Shown piece after piece: positions 3,621 to 56,419 of a stretch of 64,000 nt of DNA. The stretch spans positions 96,001 through 160,000 of the IMG/VR virus record IMGVR_UViG_3300025009_000051. The stretch is one strand, 5' to 3'. Source of the DNA: a virus. The notes under the pieces were generated by a model. It did not search any database and had not been told where the DNA came from. It saw nothing but the letters and a program-made list of their open reading frames with translations. The stretch's first letter is position 1. Every line of letters starts with the position of its first letter. The position numbers and the translations under genes were made by a program.

Positions 3621-3652
3621 TTTGTTTGTTTCATTTTAATATTGTATATTTG
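3621..3652 (+). promoter_or_regulatory. Bacteroidota-type sigma70 promoter TTTG-N20-TATATTTG
   Basis: Matches the established Bacteroidota -33/-7 consensus; TAnnTTTG also at 15404 (+) and 36640, 42001, 44561, 51560, 62978 (-). Confidence 0.7.
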
Positions 3653-3677: not shown

Positions 3678-4016
3678 ATGAAAAAAATTAACTTATTATT
3701 CAAAATTATTTTGTGTTCAATATTGATTTTTGGTTTTGCTTCTTGTAATGAAGATGCAGGAATAACCACAAAACGATTAAATGGAGACGAACAATATTTA
3801 CCAGAAGAATTAAAAGGTTTGAAGATATATTCGGTAGCACTCGATCAAGGTGGTTATGTTAAAGTAGCTGTTCTGGATAATAAAATAAATTCAACAACTT
3901 ATCGCGTGAGGAAGGCAGATGAATCAGTAATTATATTGAATAGACAAACCAATAAATTAATTGAAGTAAAAGAAATTTTGGTAGAAAACGATAGCATTAT
4001 TGTATGTAGAAAATAA
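3678..4016 (+). CDS. Putative lipoprotein
   Basis: Basic N-terminus, hydrophobic stretch, lipobox FASC. Confidence 0.65.
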   Translation: MKKINLLFKIILCSILIFGFASCNEDAGITTKRLNGDEQYLPEELKGLKIYSVALDQGGYVKVAVLDNKINSTTYRVRKADESVIILNRQTNKLIEVKEILVENDSIIVCRK

Positions 4017-4046: not shown

Positions 4047-4721
4047 ATGAAAACAGAAAACGAAAAATGGTATTGCCCAGTATGTAAATCAGAAGTGGTT
4101 TATGAAAAGCACAGAAATTGTCAAACATTAGATGAGCACGTTTGCGATCCAAATGGAACTCCTTCATCAAAACCAACTTATCATTGTAGCAATCCAAAAT
4201 GTATTTGTAATAAGCAAAAAGTTTTTTGGGATTGGTATGGTGACATGTACGGGGGGTTTAAAATTCCAGACACTACCTTTATAAATGGTAATGATTCTCC
4301 TTTTGGTTCTCACTCAAGAAAACAAAATGTTGAAATTTACAAGAAAGGCTTACCGAGACAAAAATATTTATCTCCTTGGTGGACTCTTAAACTTTGGCAA
4401 CCAATGATTGAATATCATTATAAATCCAATACAGATGGGGAAGTATTAAAGAAATGGACAAAGATTGAATTCCTCAAAAAAACTGCTGGATTCGATAATA
4501 AATATTGTACTCATGTTTCTTTGTGGAGTCACACTTTAAATTTCTTATTGAAGAATGCAAAAAGACATTACAGAACAAACCAAATTGAAAGGCTATTCAA
4601 AAAATCAAACAATCGTGATTTTATATATAGGTTTGCAGAAAAGCTTGTTATACTTCTTTATTTACGAACTTATTTAAAGGAAGGAAAAAAATTGGATAAT
4701 AAACCAGATTTTCGTTGGTAA
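4047..4721 (+). CDS. Hypothetical protein with N-terminal Zn-ribbon motifs
   Basis: CPVC and CSNPKCIC motifs. Confidence 0.65.
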   Translation: MKTENEKWYCPVCKSEVVYEKHRNCQTLDEHVCDPNGTPSSKPTYHCSNPKCICNKQKVFWDWYGDMYGGFKIPDTTFINGNDSPFGSHSRKQNVEIYKKGLPRQKYLSPWWTLKLWQPMIEYHYKSNTDGEVLKKWTKIEFLKKTAGFDNKYCTHVSLWSHTLNFLLKNAKRHYRTNQIERLFKKSNNRDFIYRFAEKLVILLYLRTYLKEGKKLDNKPDFRW

Positions 4722-4730
4722 AAATAAATT

Positions 4731-4758
4731 TTGTAATCTTAATTTTTTTAGTTATAAT
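4731..4758 (+). promoter_or_regulatory. Promoter TTGTAA-N16-TATAAT in front of orphan omegaRNA copy B
   Basis: Same TTGTWW-N16-TATAAT geometry at 17865-17892, 47989-48016 and 55085-55112 (all on -). Confidence 0.6.
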
Positions 4759-4779
4759 TCTTGCATATAAAACAAAATA

Positions 4780-4877
4780 GGGCCGAGTAGGTCCGAATTA
4801 ACGCCTTTGGAGAGTAACTCGTTGGAGCCTCATTGAATTAGGAAAAATGAATATAAAGAAATTTATATGAAATTTAA
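4780..4877 (+). ncRNA. Orphan TnpB omegaRNA (reRNA) scaffold, copy B
   Basis: ~83% identical to the tnpB 3' end at 19120-19218 and 96/98 identical to 51445-51542; no tnpB upstream. Confidence 0.8.
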
Positions 4878-4903
4878 TATTATGTTTTCGTTAAACTAAT
4901 AAA

Positions 4904-5966
4904 ATGAAACACAAAATCAATTCAGGTAAACTTCCTTTCTATATCGAATCTTTCGAAGTAGAAAAATCTTCTGTTCATATTTCATTTGAAACCTATACTT
5001 GTAAATGGTTAATAGATGGAATTAAAACAGAATATAATATCTTTGAATATCGCATTACTTCTTTATTTGATCTTACTGAAATCGAAGCAATGGATTTAGT
5101 TCAACCAATTATGATTGAGAAAGGAGAAATTATAGACGATGTGACAGGTGAACAATTAAAAGAAGATATGCTCATTGGATTTGAAAATTATATGAAAAAA
5201 CCTAAGCATGCGAATATTATGCATTTTAATTCTGCAATAGATTCTCTAAAATCTTTAATTCAATATGAATATTCAGAATATGATGATTCAAAAAATTATT
5301 TATTGATTATACCAAAACAGTTTAAAAATGGAAATTCTACCACATGAACTCACAACGACTAAAAAAATGAAGCAATCCTTTTATAAAAAATATTTAGAGT
5401 ATTCTTGGTTAGATGCTTTCTATTCTTTCTTTCGTTATGAATTAACCAATCTATTTAAAAATATTTGGTTATTCAGAAAAGATTTATGGAAATTTCGTTG
5501 GTATGATTATGGATATACTCTTAATATTCTACAGACATCTTTAGAAGCTATGGAAAAAGGAATGCATAATGGATATGAAGTACCTGAATCAAGAAATAAA
5601 AAAATTGCTAAAATGCAAAGATCAATTCAAATTTTAAATAATATTAAAACAAATAATTATTATGAATTGGCAGAAAATGAATTACATTTAAAATATACTT
5701 ATGTGCCTTTTGATTTTGAGCCATTAAAAAATAACCCAGAATATTTTAAATTAGTGTCTAAAGAATCTAAAGAAGTTAAAGAAACAAATCGTAAAATTAG
5801 TGATAGAGCGAGAGAAATAGAACAATCGGAATGGAATGAATTATGGGATATTTTTAAAGGTCGGGATATTAACGAATACATAAAATTAAGAAAAGAAAAT
5901 GAGAAAGATAATGGATTATACGATAATTGGTTTGACGGATCTGGAATGTTAGGTTGGTGGGATTAA
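4904..5966 (+). CDS. Two hypothetical ORFs: 4904-5347, 5328-5966
   Basis: Overlapping co-oriented ORFs; no motif recognised. Confidence 0.65.
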
Positions 5967-15088: not shown

Positions 15089-15215
15089 TTTAATTTGTGA
15101 TTTTCTATAGTTACTATGAAACTATAATTCGGATTTTTTGTTTTCGGTTTACTCTATATATGAATAAAGTATTTTTTTCGATAAAGGTATTGAAAACCTT
15201 TAATGTAGTTTTGTT

Positions 15216-15290
15216 TTGAACTTCTACAACCTAAAGGATGTAAATTCCTATTCTAGACAGGCACAATCCGTAGTTCCTACGGCGATATTT
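15216..15290 (-). ncRNA. Compact omegaRNA-like IS200/IS605 right end (second family) in the scaffold/capsid operon leader
   Basis: On -: CCGTAG-GAA-CTACGG stem, CCTGT/ATAGG pairing, TACATCC-TTTA-GGTTGTA end hairpin, then GAAGTTCAA terminus. Confidence 0.6.
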
Positions 15291-15323
15291 TTTATTTAGT
15301 AGGATTATAATTCCTTCTTTAAT

Positions 15324-15332
15324 ATAAGTATA
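15324..15332 (-). promoter_or_regulatory. Putative late-type promoter ATACTTATA for the scaffold/capsid operon
   Basis: Variant of the recurring ATATTTAT(A/T) motif. Confidence 0.5.
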
Positions 15333-15431
15333 AAATAAAAAAAAAGAACTTAATTTTTTTAATTAATTTTAAAGAAATATTTGTTTATTTCATATTTTCA
15401 ATGTATATTTGTGTGTATAAAAACAAAAATA

Positions 15432-15744: not shown

Positions 15745-16158
15745 ATGATAGTCAAAGAACAAATATCCAATAGAAAAAGAATTAATCATATAATTCTAAC
15801 TCCTACTCCACATATTAAATCTTACGCTGCATTAATATCTTTGAATGATTATTACAGTTCGTTAGATAGGGAAATTTTAGAAGAAATGGATTGGAGATAT
15901 CTTTTTATATTTAAACGTACATGGCTTAGACATAGAAAGGATGATAACGGTAATCATACTTGTGAATATTGTGGAAGAACGGATTTAAAAATTGGACCAA
16001 GGAAGTCTCATCCAGGTAAAAACCAAAAATCTTATATTACCCTCGATCATATAATGCCATTATCTAAAGGTGGAGGAAAATTTGATACTAATAATTTTGC
16101 CAAAGCATGTTTTAATTGCAATACTAAAAAAGGTGATACAATTATAAATTTAAAATAA
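15745..16158 (+). CDS. HNH endonuclease
   Basis: CEYCG...TLDHIMPLSKGG...NFAKACFNCNTKKG. Confidence 0.9.
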   Translation: MIVKEQISNRKRINHIILTPTPHIKSYAALISLNDYYSSLDREILEEMDWRYLFIFKRTWLRHRKDDNGNHTCEYCGRTDLKIGPRKSHPGKNQKSYITLDHIMPLSKGGGKFDTNNFAKACFNCNTKKGDTIINLK

Positions 16159-16903: not shown

Positions 16904-17782
16904 TTACTTTCTTACTCCTGAACTTCTTCCACTATTTGAATTACCGGAATTACTTCTATTATTATTGGTATTCGTGTTTATATTAAAATTAGAATTATTA
17001 TTTGAATTAGTATTTCTATTATAATTTGTAGAAGAATTTGTATTGGTAGAATAGTTAGAATTTGAATTACTGTAATTTGGTTTTACATTTGTCGTCCTAT
17101 TTGAATTAGAGTAATTATAATTTGGTTTTGTTGTATTGTTTGGTCTGACATAATTATTTTGATTATTCTGATTTGTGTTGGTATTTATTCTATTTTGGTT
17201 TGTAGTATTATTTGTTGATATTCTATTATGATTATTGTTTGTCGTTATATTATTTGAGTTTGTTCTAATCACATTATTTCTATTATCTGAATTAACTGTT
17301 TTATATTCGTGATTTGGTCTGATTGCATCATTTCTAACAATATTATTTCTTTCTCCTACATTTGTTCTATATCTATTTCCATAAGAAGAATAATTCTGAT
17401 AATAATTGTGATAATTGTAATTATAATAACCATTATAATATCCATTCCAATAACCATTATAATATCCATTCCAATAATTTTCATAATAATACCAATTGTA
17501 ATAAGAATATGAATAATAGTAAGAAGGATAATAATAAGTTGGATAATACCAATAATCATAAAAATAATAATCAAAATAAATATAATCTCTATGAAATCTA
17601 TCTATTCTTGAATTATAAGAAGAATAATTATAAATGTAAATGTCTACATCAGATTGATTTGTTTCTACATATATTGTGTCATTATGTTCTGGATAAGAAT
17701 CATCATAATATTGAACTACTTGAGTGGTCATACAAGAACTCAGAATAAATATTATACTGAGTAATAAGAATAATTTTTTCAT
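16904..17782 (-). CDS. Lipoprotein with Tyr-rich middle and Asn/Ser/Thr/Arg low-complexity tail
   Basis: MKK plus hydrophobic stretch and LSSC lipobox; YYNGY repeats; N-rich tail. Confidence 0.75.
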   Translation of the reverse strand: MKKLFLLLSIIFILSSCMTTQVVQYYDDSYPEHNDTIYVETNQSDVDIYIYNYSSYNSRIDRFHRDYIYFDYYFYDYWYYPTYYYPSYYYSYSYYNWYYYENYWNGYYNGYWNGYYNGYYNYNYHNYYQNYSSYGNRYRTNVGERNNIVRNDAIRPNHEYKTVNSDNRNNVIRTNSNNITTNNNHNRISTNNTTNQNRINTNTNQNNQNNYVRPNNTTKPNYNYSNSNRTTNVKPNYSNSNSNYSTNTNSSTNYNRNTNSNNNSNFNINTNTNNNRSNSGNSNSGRSSGVRK

Positions 17783-17821
17783 TTGATTTAATTTTAATTG
17801 GTTATAATATTATATAAACAA

Positions 17822-17854
17822 AAAACGTACAAATATTTATTCTTTGTACGTTTT
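17822..17854 (-). terminator. Perfect 12-bp hairpin with T-run on - (terminator/attenuator, or IS left-end hairpin)
   Basis: AAAACGTACAAA / TTTGTACGTTTT. Confidence 0.45.
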
Positions 17855-17982
17855 ATTCATTTGTATTATATTAATTTAACGAAATTATACAAAAATATAT
17901 TGATTTATATAAATTTATTGTTTGAAAAAAATTAGGTTCTTTTTTTATTTTTTATAGTTATATGTATAAAAAGAATGTATAA

Positions 17983-19176
17983 ATGTTAAAAGCAATTAAA
18001 ATAAGAATATATCCAAATCAAGAACAAATGAATTATATAAATAATTTATTAGGATCTGCAAGATTTGTTTATAACAACTGCTTGGCATTTAAGATTGATT
18101 CTTATAACAACGAAAAGAAAAATGTTGGATTCGCTGAATTAGGTAGATATTTGACTGAATTGAAACAGAAAGAAGAATTTATTTGGTTAAAAGATGTACA
18201 TGCTAAGGTCTTGCAGCAATCTCTAATTAATCTAAATCAAGCTTATTCTAATTTTTTTAAAAATGGATTTGGATTTCCTAATTTCAAGAGTAGGAAAAGC
18301 TACAAGCAATCTTGTAGATTTCCGAAAGATGCAATTGGTAAGATTGAAGAAAATAAAATAACTTTGATTAAACAATTAAAAAATATTCCATTTAGATGCT
18401 CTGAAAGAGATAAAAATTATTTGAACTCTCATCAAGAAAATATTCATTCTGCGACACTCTTAAAAACTAAAACAAATAAATATTATCTTTCAATTTTAAT
18501 TGATTTTGAGTTAAATAAAAAATTAAAAGAAACAGAAAAAATCATTGGAATTGATCTTGGAATTAAAAATTTTATTGTAACTTCTGAGAATGAAAAAATT
18601 GAAAATATTAAAATTATTAGAAACAATCAAGAAAAATTAAAAAAATTACATCAAAATTTATCAAAGAAGAAAAACGGATCAAAAAATAAAGAGAAAGCAA
18701 GGATCAAATTGGCCAGATTCAACGAAAAATTAAACAACAAAAAAGAGTTTTATTTGCATCAAATATCAAATCAATTATTAGATGAAAACCAAGTCATAAT
18801 AATGGAAGATTTAGATATTAAGAGCATGCTTCAAAATCATCAATTAGCTCGAAGTATCCAAGAATTGTCTTTATATACATTTAAATCAATCTTGAAATAC
18901 AAAGCTAAATGGTATAATAGAGACATCATTGAAATCAATAAATTCTTTCCTTCGTCAAAATTATGTTCTTCTTGTGGTTACAAGAAAGATGATTTAGAAT
19001 TAAAAGACAGAAATTGGACCTGTCCAGAATGTGGAGCAGAACATGAAAGAGATTTAAATGCAGCTAAAAATATTTTGAAAGAAGGAAAGAGAATATTAGA
19101 AATAAAAGAAAACAAAATAGGGCTGAGTAGGCCCGAATCAACGCTTGTGGAGAGCAACTCATTAGAGTCTCGTTGA
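17983..19176 (+). mobile_element. tnpB: IS200/IS605-family RNA-guided endonuclease TnpB; no tnpA adjacent
   Basis: N-terminal KAIKIRIYPN...ARFVYN; RuvC I IGIDLG, RuvC II IMEDL, RuvC III RDLNAAKNI; CSSCG/CPECG zinc finger. Confidence 0.95.
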
Positions 19177-19218
19177 AACAAGAAAAAATTCATATAAAGA
19201 TTTTTATATGAAATTTAA
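19120..19218 (+). ncRNA. omegaRNA scaffold overlapping the tnpB 3' end (copy A); guide position follows from about 19219
   Basis: GGGCT/GGCCC stem, TCAACG/CGTTGA stem, CTTG/CAAG pseudoknot, perfect 10-bp TTCATATAAA/TTTATATGAA hairpin then ATTTAA. Confidence 0.85.
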
Positions 19219-19280
19219 TACTATATTGACTATAATCTCTAATCTGACTCAAAAGATGTGTGGCACGATCGCCAAATTGT

Positions 19281-22726: not shown

Positions 22727-23635
22727 ATGATAATATATAAAACAATCAATTTAATTAACGGTAAATTTTATATAGGAAAAGATTCAAAAAATAATCCCGA
22801 TTATTTTGGATCAGGAATAATTCTAAAAAAAGCTATTAAAAAATATGGTAAAGAAAATTTTAAAAAAGAAATTCTAGAATATTGTAATTCTGAAAAGGAA
22901 TTAGATCAAAAAGAAATATTTTGGATTAAAAAATTAAATTCCATTGAGAACGGATATAATATTGCTTTGGGAGGAACTGGAGGAGATACATTTACAAATA
23001 ATCCAAATAAAGAAAAAATTATTCAAAATTTAAGTCAAAAATTAACCGGAGGAAAGTTATCAGAAAAAACAAGAAAAAATATGAGTAATGGTAGAAAGGG
23101 AATGAAATTTTCAGAAGAACATAAACAAAATATAAGTAAAGCTCAAATAGGAATAAAATTTATATATAATATTAAAACAAGACAGATAAGAAAAGTAAAA
23201 AAGAACGAATTAGAAGAATTTTTATTAAATAATTCTGATTGGAAATTAGGAAAAGGAATTACATTAACTAAAGAACATAAAGAAAAATTAAATAACTCAA
23301 GAAGAGGCATAAAATCATCTAATGAGACAAAGCAAAAAATAAGTCAATCAAAAAAAGGAATCAAATTAACAGAAAAGCATAAACAAAATATAAGTATAGC
23401 CCTAACAGGTATAAAATTGTCAAATGAACACAGAAAAAATATGAGTATTTCTCATCAAGGAAAGAAAAGAAAACCTTTTAGCGAAGAAACAAAGAAAAAA
23501 ATGAGTAAAGCAGCTAAAAATAGGCCGGACGTTTCAGATGAAACTAAACAGAAATTAAGTGAAGCTAATAAAGGTAGAATACCTTGGAATAAAGGAATTC
23601 ATTATTCTAAAAATATTAAAGAAAATGAATTATAA
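22727..23635 (+). CDS. GIY-YIG homing endonuclease with NUMOD3-like repeats
   Basis: IIYKTINLINGKFYIGK...YFGSG; repeated SEEHKQNISKA-type motifs. Confidence 0.9.
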   Translation: MIIYKTINLINGKFYIGKDSKNNPDYFGSGIILKKAIKKYGKENFKKEILEYCNSEKELDQKEIFWIKKLNSIENGYNIALGGTGGDTFTNNPNKEKIIQNLSQKLTGGKLSEKTRKNMSNGRKGMKFSEEHKQNISKAQIGIKFIYNIKTRQIRKVKKNELEEFLLNNSDWKLGKGITLTKEHKEKLNNSRRGIKSSNETKQKISQSKKGIKLTEKHKQNISIALTGIKLSNEHRKNMSISHQGKKRKPFSEETKKKMSKAAKNRPDVSDETKQKLSEANKGRIPWNKGIHYSKNIKENEL

Positions 23636-49923: not shown

Positions 49924-51411
49924 TTATGAGTTTCTTATATCGCAAGCCGGTCTCCAGAATGAATTGTTATACCATCTAAGTCTTAAATTAGTCAACAATT
50001 CATTTAAATGAGTTTTATCTATTGATTCTGGTAAATCACAGTTATCATAAATCTCATCAATAATTTTAATTTCATTTTTAGCTTGATCAATAATAGTTTG
50101 TAAATCTACTTTACCTTTTCTAATATCAATTAATTTATCTGCATCTGGACGTTTTAAAATCATTCCTTTCCCTTCAGCAATTTCACGACTCATACTTAAT
50201 AATCTAACACAATGCATTAAATTTTTTCCGTCTATTTGTTGCTTATGTGATTCAACATCTACCCATCTATTTAAATTTCTTTCCTTTAACCAAGTTTGAT
50301 AATTTTGATATTCTTTACAATGAGTAGAATAAGAATTTAAATCATATAAAATAAAAGCTTTTATTCTTTCATTTTTTGGTATTGAAGACAATCTAATTTC
50401 ATTACTAACTATTTCATCTTCTTGATTCATTTTTATAATACCATTGTATTTTATTTCCGGTTTATCTTCATAAAACAATCCAAATACCATAATATATTTG
50501 TAAGCATCTTTAGGTTGAAGTTTACTTGATTTATATAAAGGTTCTAATAAATGTTTATAAGCGTTTGATAAATCTAATACATCTTGGTATTGAATGTTTG
50601 AATTGTGTTTCATGACATCCAATTTAGCATTCAGATTATTAATTTTTACAAGTAGACTATCTGAAAAACCATTTACGTCTAATACTCCATATTTAGATAA
50701 GATTTGAAGTTGTTTAGATAAATGAAATGATAATAATTGCCAATCATTTATATCAGCATGATGTTTAATAAATTCAATTAATTTATCATAGGTGTGAGGA
50801 ATAGGAACCAATCCACATTTAGCTTGATCTAAATCATTTTGTTTTAACCAATCTATAATTGGAATTGTTTCTTTTTCTTGAATGACCGAAATAAAATCAA
50901 GTGGAGTTTTTCTTTTTGTTTTTGCTTTATTCCAATTCTGAAATTTATTTTGTCCTTGACTTTTTTGTATTTGTGCCGAAGCATATCCACCTACTGAATA
51001 TTTGCATTGCTTTGTTAGAAATTTTGTTCTCTCGCATATTAATTCATGTAGAATTGGATGACGGTAAATTAAATTTTCATCATCTAAAAATAGCAATTCC
51101 AGAACCCCCGGATTTGAACTTAACAACAATTCAATATATCTTCCAATTTCAAAAAATACATTGTCGCCTTTAGGATTACCTTTTGAATCAAGTTCTCCGA
51201 ATGCTAATTGAGGATAATAAGTAGAGCCCAATCCAAATAGATATTTTTCCGGTATGATATAAATGCCTTTAAAATCTTCATCACTTCCTTCTGAATTAGT
51301 ACCATATAAATGACTACCAACTCTTGCAAGCAATAAAATCTCAAATTCTAAAATATCATCAGAATAAGTAGAGTCTAAATTTCTCTCTTTTAAAAAATCC
51401 TTTATTAACAT
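49924..51411 (-). CDS. Pol-beta superfamily nucleotidyltransferase (RlaP/YcgL-like)
   Basis: GSHLYGTN...SDEDFKGIY; NPGVLELLF; KNLMHCVRLL. Confidence 0.8.
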   Translation of the reverse strand: MLIKDFLKERNLDSTYSDDILEFEILLLARVGSHLYGTNSEGSDEDFKGIYIIPEKYLFGLGSTYYPQLAFGELDSKGNPKGDNVFFEIGRYIELLLSSNPGVLELLFLDDENLIYRHPILHELICERTKFLTKQCKYSVGGYASAQIQKSQGQNKFQNWNKAKTKRKTPLDFISVIQEKETIPIIDWLKQNDLDQAKCGLVPIPHTYDKLIEFIKHHADINDWQLLSFHLSKQLQILSKYGVLDVNGFSDSLLVKINNLNAKLDVMKHNSNIQYQDVLDLSNAYKHLLEPLYKSSKLQPKDAYKYIMVFGLFYEDKPEIKYNGIIKMNQEDEIVSNEIRLSSIPKNERIKAFILYDLNSYSTHCKEYQNYQTWLKERNLNRWVDVESHKQQIDGKNLMHCVRLLSMSREIAEGKGMILKRPDADKLIDIRKGKVDLQTIIDQAKNEIKIIDEIYDNCDLPESIDKTHLNELLTNLRLRWYNNSFWRPACDIRNS

Positions 51412-51444
51412 AACTTCAATTTATTTTTGTATTTCGTTATAGTA

Positions 51445-51542
51445 TTAAATTTCATATAAATTTCTTTATATTCATTTTTCCTAATTCAATGAGTCTCCAA
51501 TGAGTTACTCTCCAAAGGCGTTAATTCGGACCTACTCGGCCC
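51445..51542 (-). ncRNA. Orphan TnpB omegaRNA scaffold, copy C
   Basis: Reverse complement is 96/98 identical to 4780-4877; no tnpB upstream. Confidence 0.8.
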
Positions 51543-51559
51543 TATTTTCTTTTATAATA

Positions 51560-51590
51560 CAAATTTAAATATTTTTTTGATATAAACAAA
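51560..51590 (-). promoter_or_regulatory. Bacteroidota-type promoter TTTG-N19-TAAATTTG directly upstream of omegaRNA copy C
   Basis: Exact consensus match and spacing. Confidence 0.7.
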
Positions 51591-51845: not shown

Positions 51846-54800
51846 TTATTTTAAATTTTTAAGAAGTTCATGTAGATCTTCAATATAAATATCGACTGGT
51901 TCTTTCTTATTTATTTCTTCATAATTATCTTCTAATTGTTTTTTCTTTTTCTTATACTCTTCAGTAGTTTCTTTTGATAATGTATGAACAGGTAAATTTA
52001 ATAAATAATTGTATGAGTCATCTATCTTATCAAATTTAAACTTTTCTAATTGAGTTATGATTTCAGTTTTAGGTGTATCATTTATTTTAAGTTTGTTCTC
52101 GAAAATTTTTATAGAGAACAAGATCTTGTTAGATAATATTTTTATGTCCTTAGATATACTATCGAGTAAGAACGTCTTTCTTTTCGTTATATAAGGTAGT
52201 CTAAAATGTAAAAAATGAGTGATGATATCATAAATATTTTCAAACTGTTTTAATTTTCCAAATTCATCTAATACATTCAAATTTTCAGATTCATATGAAG
52301 TCAATTTTAATAATTTCATAATATCCTCTTTGGTAAAATCGGCTAAATCAGATCTTGAAAATTTAATTATGTATTCAATATTTTCTTTACTGTTATTTTC
52401 ATAATCTACAATTTTTCTTTTATCTATTAATTCATTCAAATATATTTCATAATCTTCAAACTCCCAATTTGGAGGAAGTTCTGTAATCTTAATTGTATTG
52501 GTATTTATCCTTTCATATGTTCCACTGAATATCCATCTTTTATTTGTTTCATCGAAAAAAGTATTTTCATTATTTGTAAAATCTGGATAATAGGGTTTAA
52601 TTATTTTATTTTTTATTTTCTTACCTTTTAAAATATCAATACAAATATTAATAATTTCTTGAGGATTTCTATTTAAAATATTTGTGGCAAATCCAACAGC
52701 AATACCAGAAGAACCATTTATTAATACCATTGGAATAATAGGTAGAAAATATTTTGGTTCTATTTCTACTCCCTCATCGAATGTAGGAGTTAATAAATTA
52801 TTATCTTTATAAAGATATTCGAAATTTGGTGAAATTTTTGTACTTACATATCTTGCAGCACCTGCTTCTCTATCTCTAAAAGAACCATATTGTCCAATAT
52901 CCAATAATAAAGGTAAATTATTTTTAAAGGTTTGTGCCATATTAATAATGGCTCCTTCTAAGCTTACATTTCCATGATGATAGTGTTGAGTGTCTGCAAT
53001 TCTACCTGCACATTGAAATACTTTAGTTTCTTTGGTTATTTTTCTTGCTTCATTTATAATTTTCCTTTGTGTTGGTTTAAATCCATCTATTGCACTTGGT
53101 ATTGCTCTTTGTTCAATCACATGATAAGCATATGACAAATATTCTTCATTTAAATATTGTGAAATAGTTTTTACATCTTTTGTATATAATATCTCTTCAA
53201 CTAAATTTTCTACAATTATTTTCTTTCTTAAATCTGTTTCTCTACCAAACCATATTTCCAATAATTCTTTTGAATTTTCGTCTAATTTAAATTGAATTAA
53301 TTTTGGAGATTGAATAATCTTTTTATACTCTTCATTTTCTAAAGCAGCTAACCCCTTTTTATAACTTATGTCCCATTTCTTTAATTCTGTTTCTTTTAAT
53401 TTATGTAACCAATGATTATATTCTGTTTCTGAATAAAATTCTAAAACTTCTTTATTGTGCTTTGCTACAACAACCGGAGTTAATATTCTAAATACTTTTC
53501 CTTGCTCATATAATTCTGGCCAAAAAGTGTAAAAGAAATTAATTAATAAACCTGCAATTGCGTCTCCGTCAGTATCAGAGTCACTCATGATTCGAATTTC
53601 ATTATATCTTAAATCTGTAGCTTTTTCTCCAATTTTTAATCCTACAGCCGCCATCAAATCTTTTAACTCTTTATTTTTATATACATCAAGAGATTCAATT
53701 TTCGAAACATTCTTAACCTTGCCTCTCAATGGAAATAAACCATGAATTTTATTATCCATATATTTTCTGGCGCCGCTTTTGGCCGAATCCCCTTCAGTAA
53801 TTAAAAGTATGCAACCAGATCTATCTGTATTTTTAGCATCTATTAATTTATCTACAATGACTTTATGAATTTTTCTATTTTCTATTCTTAAATCTCTTTC
53901 CTTTGCTTCTTCTTCTTTCTTTTTTGCCCAATCAATTATACTTGCACATATTTCACTATTAAATAATTTATTTAGAAATTTTTCACTTACAATATGTTCT
54001 GTTCCAAAATCAACTGGTTTAGTAGACAATTTTTGTTTTGTTTGACTTCCAAAAGCAGGATTGATAATTGTAGAATTAATAAATAAAAATAAATGTTGCT
54101 TAATACCATATGGAGTGATATTAACCTTATATTTCTTTTTTATTTTTTCTCTTAACCAATCTGTAATTTGATTTGCTATGTATTCTACATGCTCTCCGCC
54201 TTCTGGAACAGATAAACTATTTACAAAACTAATATGATTAAATCCTTTTGTTGACAATTTAATTGCTATCGACCAATCTTTACTTTCTTCAAATATTATA
54301 TCTTCGGCCGCACTTTCAAATAAATCACTAAATTCTTTAAATGATTTATATTGATATTTTTCTTTTACTCCGTCTACATCTAATACAATTTTTAATCCAG
54401 AATTACAGGCCGCGACATTAATAATTTTAAATCTTATCCAGTCAATTAAATCTTTATCTATAATTGTATAATCAAATCTTTTGTAATCGGGTGTGAACTT
54501 TATTTCTGTATAATGTTCTTTTGAATTTTCTATTTTAAAATCTTCAAATACAGATAAATTATCTCGATAGGTTCTTTGAAATTGTTTTTTTCCATCTGCA
54601 CTTTTTATTGTGAATTTTTTGGAGAAAATATTAGTTATACTACTACCTACTCCATTTCTACCTGCCACAATTCTATTTTCTGTATCATCAAAATTGCTAC
54701 CCGACCTTAATTTACTCACGATTAAATCTGGAATATATAGATTATATTCTGAGTGCATAATTATTGGAATTCCACCGTTGTCCCAAACTGATATTTCACC

Positions 54801-55067
54801 TGTCTTGGTGTTTAGCTTAACTTTAATAGCATCTATAACATTATTTCTTAAATGCTCGTCTACACTATTAGAAATAATTTCGTTGAATATTTGAAATAAT
54901 CCGGGAGAAGCATTAATTTGCGTTGAAACCAATTTATTATTTTTTAAGCTATAAATTTCAACTGCTTGCCTTGATGTAGATCCGATCATAATTTCGGGTC
55001 TTTTTAAAATATACTCTACTTCATCTTGAATCCATTGATATTTTTGTTCTAAAGTTTTTTGTTGCAT
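51846..55067 (-). CDS. Type IIA DNA topoisomerase, B (ATPase/TOPRIM) and A subunits in one polypeptide
   Basis: EIISNSVDE, GRNGVG, TEGDSA, PLRGK, MSDSDTDG; then RAIPSAIDGFKPTQRK, YHHG and catalytic AARY. Confidence 0.93.
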   Translation of the reverse strand: MQQKTLEQKYQWIQDEVEYILKRPEIMIGSTSRQAVEIYSLKNNKLVSTQINASPGLFQIFNEIISNSVDEHLRNNVIDAIKVKLNTKTGEISVWDNGGIPIIMHSEYNLYIPDLIVSKLRSGSNFDDTENRIVAGRNGVGSSITNIFSKKFTIKSADGKKQFQRTYRDNLSVFEDFKIENSKEHYTEIKFTPDYKRFDYTIIDKDLIDWIRFKIINVAACNSGLKIVLDVDGVKEKYQYKSFKEFSDLFESAAEDIIFEESKDWSIAIKLSTKGFNHISFVNSLSVPEGGEHVEYIANQITDWLREKIKKKYKVNITPYGIKQHLFLFINSTIINPAFGSQTKQKLSTKPVDFGTEHIVSEKFLNKLFNSEICASIIDWAKKKEEEAKERDLRIENRKIHKVIVDKLIDAKNTDRSGCILLITEGDSAKSGARKYMDNKIHGLFPLRGKVKNVSKIESLDVYKNKELKDLMAAVGLKIGEKATDLRYNEIRIMSDSDTDGDAIAGLLINFFYTFWPELYEQGKVFRILTPVVVAKHNKEVLEFYSETEYNHWLHKLKETELKKWDISYKKGLAALENEEYKKIIQSPKLIQFKLDENSKELLEIWFGRETDLRKKIIVENLVEEILYTKDVKTISQYLNEEYLSYAYHVIEQRAIPSAIDGFKPTQRKIINEARKITKETKVFQCAGRIADTQHYHHGNVSLEGAIINMAQTFKNNLPLLLDIGQYGSFRDREAGAARYVSTKISPNFEYLYKDNNLLTPTFDEGVEIEPKYFLPIIPMVLINGSSGIAVGFATNILNRNPQEIINICIDILKGKKIKNKIIKPYYPDFTNNENTFFDETNKRWIFSGTYERINTNTIKITELPPNWEFEDYEIYLNELIDKRKIVDYENNSKENIEYIIKFSRSDLADFTKEDIMKLLKLTSYESENLNVLDEFGKLKQFENIYDIITHFLHFRLPYITKRKTFLLDSISKDIKILSNKILFSIKIFENKLKINDTPKTEIITQLEKFKFDKIDDSYNYLLNLPVHTLSKETTEEYKKKKKQLEDNYEEINKKEPVDIYIEDLHELLKNLK

Positions 55068-55311: not shown

Positions 55312-56419
55312 TACTAAATATTATTGTGTATGTGGATTTTCACATAAAAGTAAATTATCTTTAGGTCAACACAGAAGCAGATGTGAAATATTTAAAAATT
55401 ATCTTTTATCAATATCAAATGAAATTGTTTTTGAAAAATATCTAAAACAAGGAATAGCAATCTCCAGGTTGGCACAAGAATATCAAATTGATAGAAGTAT
55501 AATAGAAAAAATAATTAAACAACATAAAATTCCAATTAGAACAGGAAAAGAATCTCAAAATTTGAATTCTGTAAAACAAAAAAGAATAAATACTCAATTA
55601 GCAAAGTTCGGTGTAGAAAATTGCATGCAAAATAAAGACATTTATAAAAAATTTAAAGAAACATGCATTAAAAAATATGGTGTAGAATATCCAATGCAAT
55701 CAAACGAAATAAAAGAAAAATTAAAAAAAATAATATTATAAAAATATGGTGTAGAAAATACATTTCAAAATGAATTAATAAAAGAAAAATCGAAAAAAAC
55801 AATGTTAGAAAAATATGGAGTAGACCATAATACAAAATTTTTAAATTGGGAAGAAAACACAAAAAAAAGAAATTTAAAAAAATATGGTTGTGAATGGCCA
55901 ATGCAATCACAAATAATAAAAAATAAAGCTAAACAAACAAAAAAAGAAATATATGGAAATGAATATTATACCAATCCTACTAAAGCATTAAAAACAAAAA
56001 TAAAAAATAATATAACTCAAAATAAATCATACATTCCATCAATATATTCTCAAAATTTATTTTGGAAAATTTATGAGCAATTAGAAAATAAAGAACACAT
56101 TTATTTTGCCAAATTAAATAAAGAATTTGGAAAATATAATTCAATAAATAATAAATATTATTTTTATGATTTTGTAGATACAAAAAATAAAAAGATAATT
56201 GAATTTAATGGAGATTATTGGCATATGAATCCAAATAAATTTAAATCTGCAGATATACATCCAACTTCAAAATTATTAGCAGAAGAAATATGGTATAAAG
56301 ATCAACAAAAAATAAATTTTATTACATCAATTGGTTTTAAAGTTTTAATTATTTGGGAGGCAGAAGCTAAACAAAATGAAAGTATAATTATTAATAAGTG
56401 CATTAATTTTTTAAAATAA
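55298..56419 (+). pseudogene. Homing endonuclease (KYGV repeats plus Vsr/PD-(D/E)XK domain) split by an in-frame TAA at 55739-55741
   Basis: ORFs 55298-55741 and 55802-56419 are in the same frame and the linker reads IIL*KYGVENT; C-terminus has YDF...IIEFNGDYWH...GFKVLIIWE. Confidence 0.75.

Follow-up and report, generated by a model that had tools for sequence, protein, structure and literature searches.

TnpB genes and solo omega-RNA scaffolds in the genome of a huge phage: candidate homing-type OMEGA elements

Introduction

In TnpB elements generally, the guide is the DNA next to the right end of the element. TldR proteins are nuclease-dead, TnpB-derived transcription factors of temperate phages. 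Another group of phage proteins with which such elements can be compared are the free-standing homing endonucleases of the Seg and Mob types, selfish nucleases known for intronless homing and marker exclusion.

The closest described system is ISDra2 of the IS200/IS605 group, with its TnpB nuclease and omega-RNA, also called reRNA (PDB 8EXA, 8BF8 and 8H1J). TnpB cuts the element-free site, which consists of a TAM and the flank copied in the guide, after which the element is restored or spread through homologous repair (PMC10055086; PMC13565253). TnpB also processes its own mRNA (PMC10278001). The IS607 elements end in GG and have a RAGATH-18-type guide RNA (PMC13565253). Stand-alone omega-RNAs of OMEGA systems work in trans (PMC10691335), a use that was shown in bacteria by Altae-Tran 2021, as summarised in PMC10691335, and the PATEs encode omega-RNAs that require TnpB in trans (PMC10055086). 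Co-infecting phages have also been discussed as a setting for homing (PMC13565253).

Here we describe a phage with such elements. The stretch of DNA analysed, called the window below, is 64,000 nucleotides long and comprises bases 96001-160000 of a 183,716-bp IMG/VR virus record; its G+C content is ~25%. The same phage is present in groundwater metagenome assemblies, among them a 292,100-bp NCBI contig and a 291,900-bp ENA contig. Its genome of ~292 kb contains two tnpB genes (tnpB1 and tnpB2) and four scaffolds (A, B, C and D).

The locus is similar to ISDra2 in the D-E-D triad, the zinc finger and the full-length alignment of its TnpB, as well as in the location of the guide RNA gene, which reaches from the 3' part of the ORF into the right end, with the flank as guide. 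In contrast to ISDra2, there is no Y1 TnpA in the 184-kb record, some relatives have a serine recombinase, and the carrier is a phage. The IS607 tnpA-tnpB arrangement is matched by family members with a Resolvase-domain ORF overlapping the tnpB start, but the recombinase was not found in the phage record, the right end is ACTAT rather than GG, and RAGATH-18 gives no match. Scaffolds without a protein, with effector loci in the same genome, are shared with PATE (PMC10055086) and with the stand-alone omega-RNAs of Altae-Tran 2021 as these are summarised in PMC10691335. Several features set the scaffolds B and C apart from the published stand-alone omega-RNAs and PATE: their carrier is a huge phage, they lack a left end, they share their predicted promoters with phage genes, and the cis scaffolds differ from them by 16-19%. 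PATEs have both a left and a right end, and the deletion derivatives of the family keep left ends. Like Seg and Mob, the locus is a selfish nuclease in a variable region near HNH and GIY-YIG genes, with a presumed action on co-infecting relatives; unlike theirs, its specificity would be RNA-derived. A phage-borne TnpB relative with a guide RNA beside genes also recalls TldR, an identity that is ruled out by the intact RuvC motifs. The arrangement is known in bacteria, and the present case is a phage example with solo guide-RNA genes.

Results

The TnpB nuclease of the window

The following features belong to the gene and its upstream region (all coordinates without a contig name are positions in the window).

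17983..19176, + strand: tnpB ORF, 397 aa, catalytically intact by motif
17863..17982, + strand: upstream region of tnpB2, probable left end; starts with GTATT like the left ends of the family (alignment with L157; inverted repeat I14)

The 397-aa product matches the Pfam domains HTH_OrfB_IS605, OrfB_IS605 and Cas12f1-like_TNB (PF12323, PF01385 and PF07282, in that order) and aligns end to end with the ISDra2 TnpB (8EXA/8BF8, E 2e-64). The RuvC triad D-E-D is kept (GIDLG, MEDL and ERD, corresponding to D191, E278 and D361 of ISDra2), and so are both CxxC pairs; a preliminary description of this DNA, which had credited the protein with all RuvC acidic residues and a zinc finger, is borne out by this alignment. 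It was also right that no tnpA adjoins the gene, the neighbors of the ORF being unrelated genes. Neither a Y1 transposase (PF01797) nor a serine recombinase (PF00239) was detected in the 183,716-bp record. Overall, the search for a transposase covered the 292-kb genome except for ~70 kb, and none of the best 120 relatives of the family TnpA, a serine recombinase, is located on the 292-kb contigs.

The motif ATATGTATA upstream of tnpB had been taken for a late-like signal. The motif is present, but its extended box TTTTWTATASTTATAT, the only form used in the enrichment scan, has 6 matches against 5 expected, and the assignment is not upheld. The extended box as it stands at tnpB recurs at one other site only, 15322-15360; the promoter-like box at 17925-17975 upstream of tnpB2 is common to tnpB1 and to this site. 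On the minus strand of 15100-15360, the segment 15322-15360 is a 90% match to the tnpB promoter-like box, and it is followed by a leader of ~230 nt with G+C-rich hairpins and then by a 369-aa gene with acidic repeats.

The tnpB region is flanked by an HNH endonuclease gene (15745-16158) and a SegE-like GIY-YIG/NUMOD3 gene (22727-23635). The latter carries 51-nt repeats at 23043-23582.

Omega-RNA scaffolds

Scaffolds were scored with a covariance model, R1, that was built from 51 cis scaffolds of other loci, the copies of the window being left out. The window contains three scaffolds.

19109..19224, + strand: omega-RNA scaffold A, cis right end of tnpB1; R1 88.7 bits at 19110-19207; right boundary from L099
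4766..4883, + strand: solo omega-RNA scaffold B; R1 84.7 bits at 4770-4866; the upstream ORF ends at 4721
51439..51556, - strand: solo omega-RNA scaffold C; R1 85.2 bits at 51456-51552; 97% identical to B

The structured omega-RNA spans the 3' end of tnpB and the right end of the element (R1 79-89 bits for A, B, C and D), and scaffold A overlaps the final 68 nt of the ORF. Among the 51 cis scaffolds, covariation supports four helices: 97.5% of cells are paired, compared to 33-53% in slid controls, and 56 cells change on both sides, compared to 13 in shuffles. Helix 2 is formed by CCU/AGG in B, C and the family consensus and by CUU/AAG in A, a compensatory change of U-A to C-G. As judged by eye, the few differences between B and C (in the hairpin loop, at one unpaired base, and in the terminal ACTAT/ATTAT) lie outside the modelled pairs. 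Given their R1 scores, B and C are therefore structurally intact omega-RNA scaffolds and not decayed copies.

The resemblance among A, B and C is far above the chance expectation. The elements are 115-118 nt long; over 118 nt the likeness of B to C is 97%, and that of A to B is 84%, in line with the earlier statement that B and C are nearer to each other than to A. Equally confirmed is the picture of three related scaffolds with three different tails, each 12-nt tail being found once. No fourth copy was detected in the 184-kb record by BLAST or the covariance model. The prediction of a second tnpB elsewhere came true in the full genome, but the cis scaffold of this gene (scaffold D, 79.2 bits with R1) is A-like (91%) and not B- or C-like (81-82%). 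A tnpB with a scaffold of the B/C type was found nowhere. The scaffolds match no Rfam family, RAGATH-18 included; an E-value search of the sister locus gave one tRNA only.

The scaffolds end with ...A(C/T)TAT at 19224, 4883 and 51439, and the right end of the family is AACTAT. The copy L099, which lies in another context, is 93.5% identical to A up to 19224 and unrelated beyond, and because the homology stops there we place the scaffold end after ...ACTAT. The tails thus begin 1 to 6 bases later than had been written. Their first seven bases had been suspected to extend the scaffold, and this holds for six of the seven, while the seventh is the first base of the guide.

Promoters and leaders of the solo units

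Both solo units lie behind promoter-like sites of the Bacteroidota type.

4730..4760, + strand: promoter-like site upstream of B, TTTG-N19-TATAATTC, imperfect match to the Bacteroidota type
51560..51590, - strand: promoter upstream of C, TTTG-N19-TAAATTTG, perfect match to the Bacteroidota type

The pattern TTTG-N19-TAnnTTTG is enriched in the window (14 found, 3.6 expected). As had been proposed, the orphans occupy gene leaders, B and C each being located between a predicted promoter and a phage ATG, which follows 21 nt (B) and 27 nt (C) past the scaffold with no terminator in between. The gene downstream of B codes for an unknown protein of 147 aa (ATG at 4904), and that downstream of C for an RlaP-family nucleotidyltransferase (ATG at 51411, minus strand). 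With C removed, ~31 nt would separate the -7 box from the ATG; the one ordinary leader that was measured (3621-3652, ATG at 3678) has 26 nt.

B and C both start at the 5' end of the scaffold and stop at the right-end boundary. Upstream of them, beyond the 16-nt promoter box, neither a left end nor a tnpB remnant was found. They share 97% of the scaffold and the 16-nt box at the -33 element, whereas the 38 nt between these are only roughly half alike by eye. This contrast indicates that the scaffold unit itself was copied or homogenised recently. The difference from the two cis scaffolds amounts to 16-19%.

Guides and their targets

The segments in guide position, whose length of 20 nt was inferred from known TnpB guides, are as follows.

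19225..19244, + strand: guide-position segment A, ATTGACTATAATCTCTAATC, follows the right-end boundary
4884..4903, + strand: guide-position segment B, GTTTTCGTTAAACTAATAAA, runs up to the ATG at 4904
51419..51438, - strand: guide-position segment C, AACGAAATACAAAAATAAAT, in the leader of the nucleotidyltransferase gene

A second match to any of the guides was found neither in the 184-kb record nor in ~1 Mb of related loci. The search for a TAM gave none, and no IMG/VR relative is close enough to provide an uninterrupted B or C site. Among the nearest homologues of the nucleotidyltransferase, identity does not exceed 57%, and the one examined lacks an insert in its leader. B and C are identical in other assemblies of the phage, with four guides in all and no variation. 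These are single dispersed scaffold-guide units; a repeat-spacer array with variable spacers was not observed.

The flanks of the solo units show some likeness to the presumed left end of tnpB2. Read in reverse, the first 20 nt past B agree with 17865-17884 at 18 of 20 bases; the 25 nt that follow C align with 17878-17905, with a single gap of 3 nt. More broadly, the flanks of B (inverted, 4884-4905) and of C (direct, 51412-51438) resemble 17863-17905, including the octamer TAACGAAA, three of whose 11 occurrences in 184 kb are at the B flank, the C flank and the tnpB2 left end. The likeness falls into the top 0.1-0.3% of genome windows, with equal scores at unrelated places. B and C may be nested insertions into older left ends, but the flanks were not accepted as marks of nested insertions or of circle junctions, since equal-scoring matches occur elsewhere.

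Two tnpB paralogues and a hybrid ORF

In the 292-kb assemblies tnpB1 and tnpB2 are inverted, ~132 kb apart (about 77.8-79 kb and 210.9-212.1 kb on the 292,100-bp contig), and each has its own cis scaffold. Their proteins are 92% identical; with dS 0.39 and dN/dS 0.11 between the genes, both paralogues are maintained by purifying selection.

The ORF of the window corresponds to neither of the two over its whole length. On the 292,100-bp contig, a 409-aa TnpB lies beside the scaffold copy L099, and its other flank is formed by the genes found left of the ORF in the window, while the second TnpB adjoins the genes found right of it. Mismatch profiles against L163 and L157 show that 17701-19079, left flank included, is identical to tnpB2, and that the sequence from 19021 rightwards is identical to tnpB1. 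The two identities overlap in one segment.

19021..19154, + strand: stretch of 134 nt identical between tnpB1 and tnpB2, with the hybrid junction within 19021-19079

The tnpB of the window hence consists of the 5' part of tnpB2 and the 3' end of tnpB1, joined across this identical stretch. MEGAHIT k127 contigs from both tnpB loci end at 19028, and the hybrid protein is encoded by no other assembly of the phage. An assembly chimera produced by a mis-join seems somewhat the likelier origin, a real inversion isomer that arose by recombination between the inverted copies being the other candidate. Users of the public record should be warned that its tnpB gene may be an assembly hybrid of two paralogues.

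The NCBI contig has peculiarities of its own. In tnpB2 (L163:12433-13662), a 39-nt tandem duplication that repeats 13 aa is located just upstream of the scaffold start; in tnpB1 (L167:4503-5675), a difference of ~56 nt shifts the frame of the last residues. Both are absent from the other assemblies, and they reflect either a rearrangement hot spot or an assembly artefact.

The scaffold family in other viruses and metagenomes

A search with a pattern taken from the conserved core of the scaffold yielded 23 viral and 105 metagenome loci, and a single hit among 185,579 genomes that represent bacterial and archaeal species. In the family loci the scaffold lies over the 3' end of tnpB, and the TnpB is 53-66% identical to the query. 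The left ends of the family begin with GTATT. Some relatives (L127 and others) have an ORF for an IS607-type serine recombinase with a Resolvase domain that overlaps the tnpB start. About two dozen loci are without tnpB: in roughly half of them an internal deletion has spared the left end and fragments of the ORF, and the remaining ones are solo units which, as with B and C, start at the first stem. R1 gives 92-98 bits for eight solo copies located on viral records of 17-330 kb; seven of these eight records, which are incomplete, carry no tnpB. A related 168-kb phage record (TnpB 65%) has its own cis scaffold only and no solo copy.

The IS607-type serine recombinase of the relatives points to a transposon-borne origin of the scaffold family, and the copies with a serine transposase, together with the tnpB-deleted copies that have left ends, indicate that it behaves as a family of mobile elements.

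The solo scaffold L042 lies between the copies of a perfect 43-nt direct repeat. Flanking direct repeats were rejected as a general signature of the family, L042 being the only member that has them. The L075 contig carries two solo scaffolds, separated by 368 nt. A close relative of the family serine transposase, P0338, is annotated in a genome of Candidatus Paceibacterota (CPR); the phage promoters are of the Bacteroidota type.

Discussion

Because stand-alone omega-RNAs act in trans (PMC10691335), we read the locus, with slightly more confidence than doubt, as selfish OMEGA (TnpB plus omega-RNA) elements of a homing type that have taken up residence in the genome of a huge phage; in this reading B and C are minimal guide genes that depend on TnpB in trans. 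The full genome harbors two tnpB elements, intact and, in the parts searched, transposase-less, and two solo right ends, B and C, which are reduced to exactly the guide-RNA scaffold and are probably transcribed from the predicted promoters that also serve the downstream phage genes. TnpB would load all four RNAs, B and C in trans, provided that they are compatible with TnpB1 and TnpB2, as we assume. The complex could cut the uninterrupted site in a co-infecting relative, where a TAM and not the scaffold would precede the flank that matches the guide. Repair from the carrier genome would copy the insert along with neighboring markers, which would amount to RNA-guided homing or marker exclusion, and through B and C the cutting could reach two additional loci in such relatives.

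Should the solo RNAs be in use, a single small nuclease would guard several phage loci during co-infection. Such a system would mirror, with RNA as the guide, the protein homing endonucleases that are numerous in large phages, and it could plausibly be a step from transposon guides towards multi-guide systems. For practical use, the family is a source of compact pairs of nuclease and guide, with scaffolds that vary naturally. We speculate further, on a scenario that is rather doubtful as a whole, that a TnpB clade, mostly from viral and unbinned metagenome contigs, spreads between huge phages by RNA-guided homing and sheds minimal, promoter-riding solo guides that exclude co-infecting relatives at additional loci through the nuclease in trans, and that the inverted tnpB pair flips a 132-kb segment.

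Several other explanations compete with that of homing-type elements. B and C could be inert relics, solo right ends that were left after deletion of tnpB and the left end, lie passively in the leaders and are not used by TnpB. The failure to find a target, a left end or a cognate tnpB for them agrees with such a fate, as do the many family members that are plain deletion derivatives. We nevertheless find it unlikely, given that B and C have scores equal to or above those of the cis scaffolds, begin at the same 5' boundary as each other, are 97% alike although the promoter spacers are only roughly half alike by eye, and show their visible differences outside the modelled pairs. It also seems improbable that they are ordinary non-autonomous insertion sequences moved by a transposase that acts in trans, either from the host or from the rest of the phage genome, with TnpB serving in donor-site restoration only. 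No Y1 or serine transposase was found in the 184 kb, none of the best 120 family TnpA relatives is on the 292-kb contigs, and a left end could not be recognised at B or C; these observations outweigh the IS607-type serine recombinase that overlaps tnpB in relatives such as L127, the existence of deletion derivatives with left ends, and the occurrence of an A-type right end in two contexts of one genome. The scenario in which an active tnpA mobilises ordinary elements with left ends, which the preliminary description had named as the one opposed to its own proposal, holds only by half: the search for an active tnpA gave none, and both B and C are without a left end.

That proposal itself, a domesticated CRISPR-like weapon or regulator with a repertoire of guides directed against the host or unrelated competitors, has in our judgment only a slim chance of being correct. 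It could draw on intact nucleases under selection and on solo guide genes behind host-type promoters, but the guides equal the adjacent phage DNA and match nothing elsewhere, there are only four of them in no array and with no variation between assemblies, and the family has the features of mobile elements. Slimmer still is the chance that B and C are cis-regulatory leaders, in which binding or processing of the scaffold in the 5' UTR by TnpB would tune the 4904 gene and the nucleotidyltransferase gene. The position of both orphans between promoter and ATG, 21 and 27 nt from the start and with no terminator, would suit this role, and TnpB does process its own mRNA (PMC10278001); a neutral insertion, however, would look alike, a relative with the same nucleotidyltransferase gene is without such a leader, and nothing links the two genes.

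Other features of the phage genome

In a sister assembly, the interval between a tRNA-Asp gene and tnpB1 (L157:4670-5960) is a 1.3-kb ORF-free stretch with 31-40% G+C, compared to ~25% for the genome. It has no match in Rfam and could be a large structured RNA. An array of ten tRNA genes is located farther to the left. In a related 174-kb phage contig (L161:7963-10235), a 517-aa TnpB/Cas12-like gene lies between genes for an N-terminal and a C-terminal fragment of DnaJ, which suggests that dnaJ was split by its insertion.

Within the window, a single gene of 1073 aa on the minus strand (51846-55067) is a fusion of a GyrB-like and a GyrA-like part of a type II topoisomerase. Five tandem units of 69 nt are found inside a gene at 55586-55956 and encode a repeated 23-aa motif of the KYGVE..MQ type.
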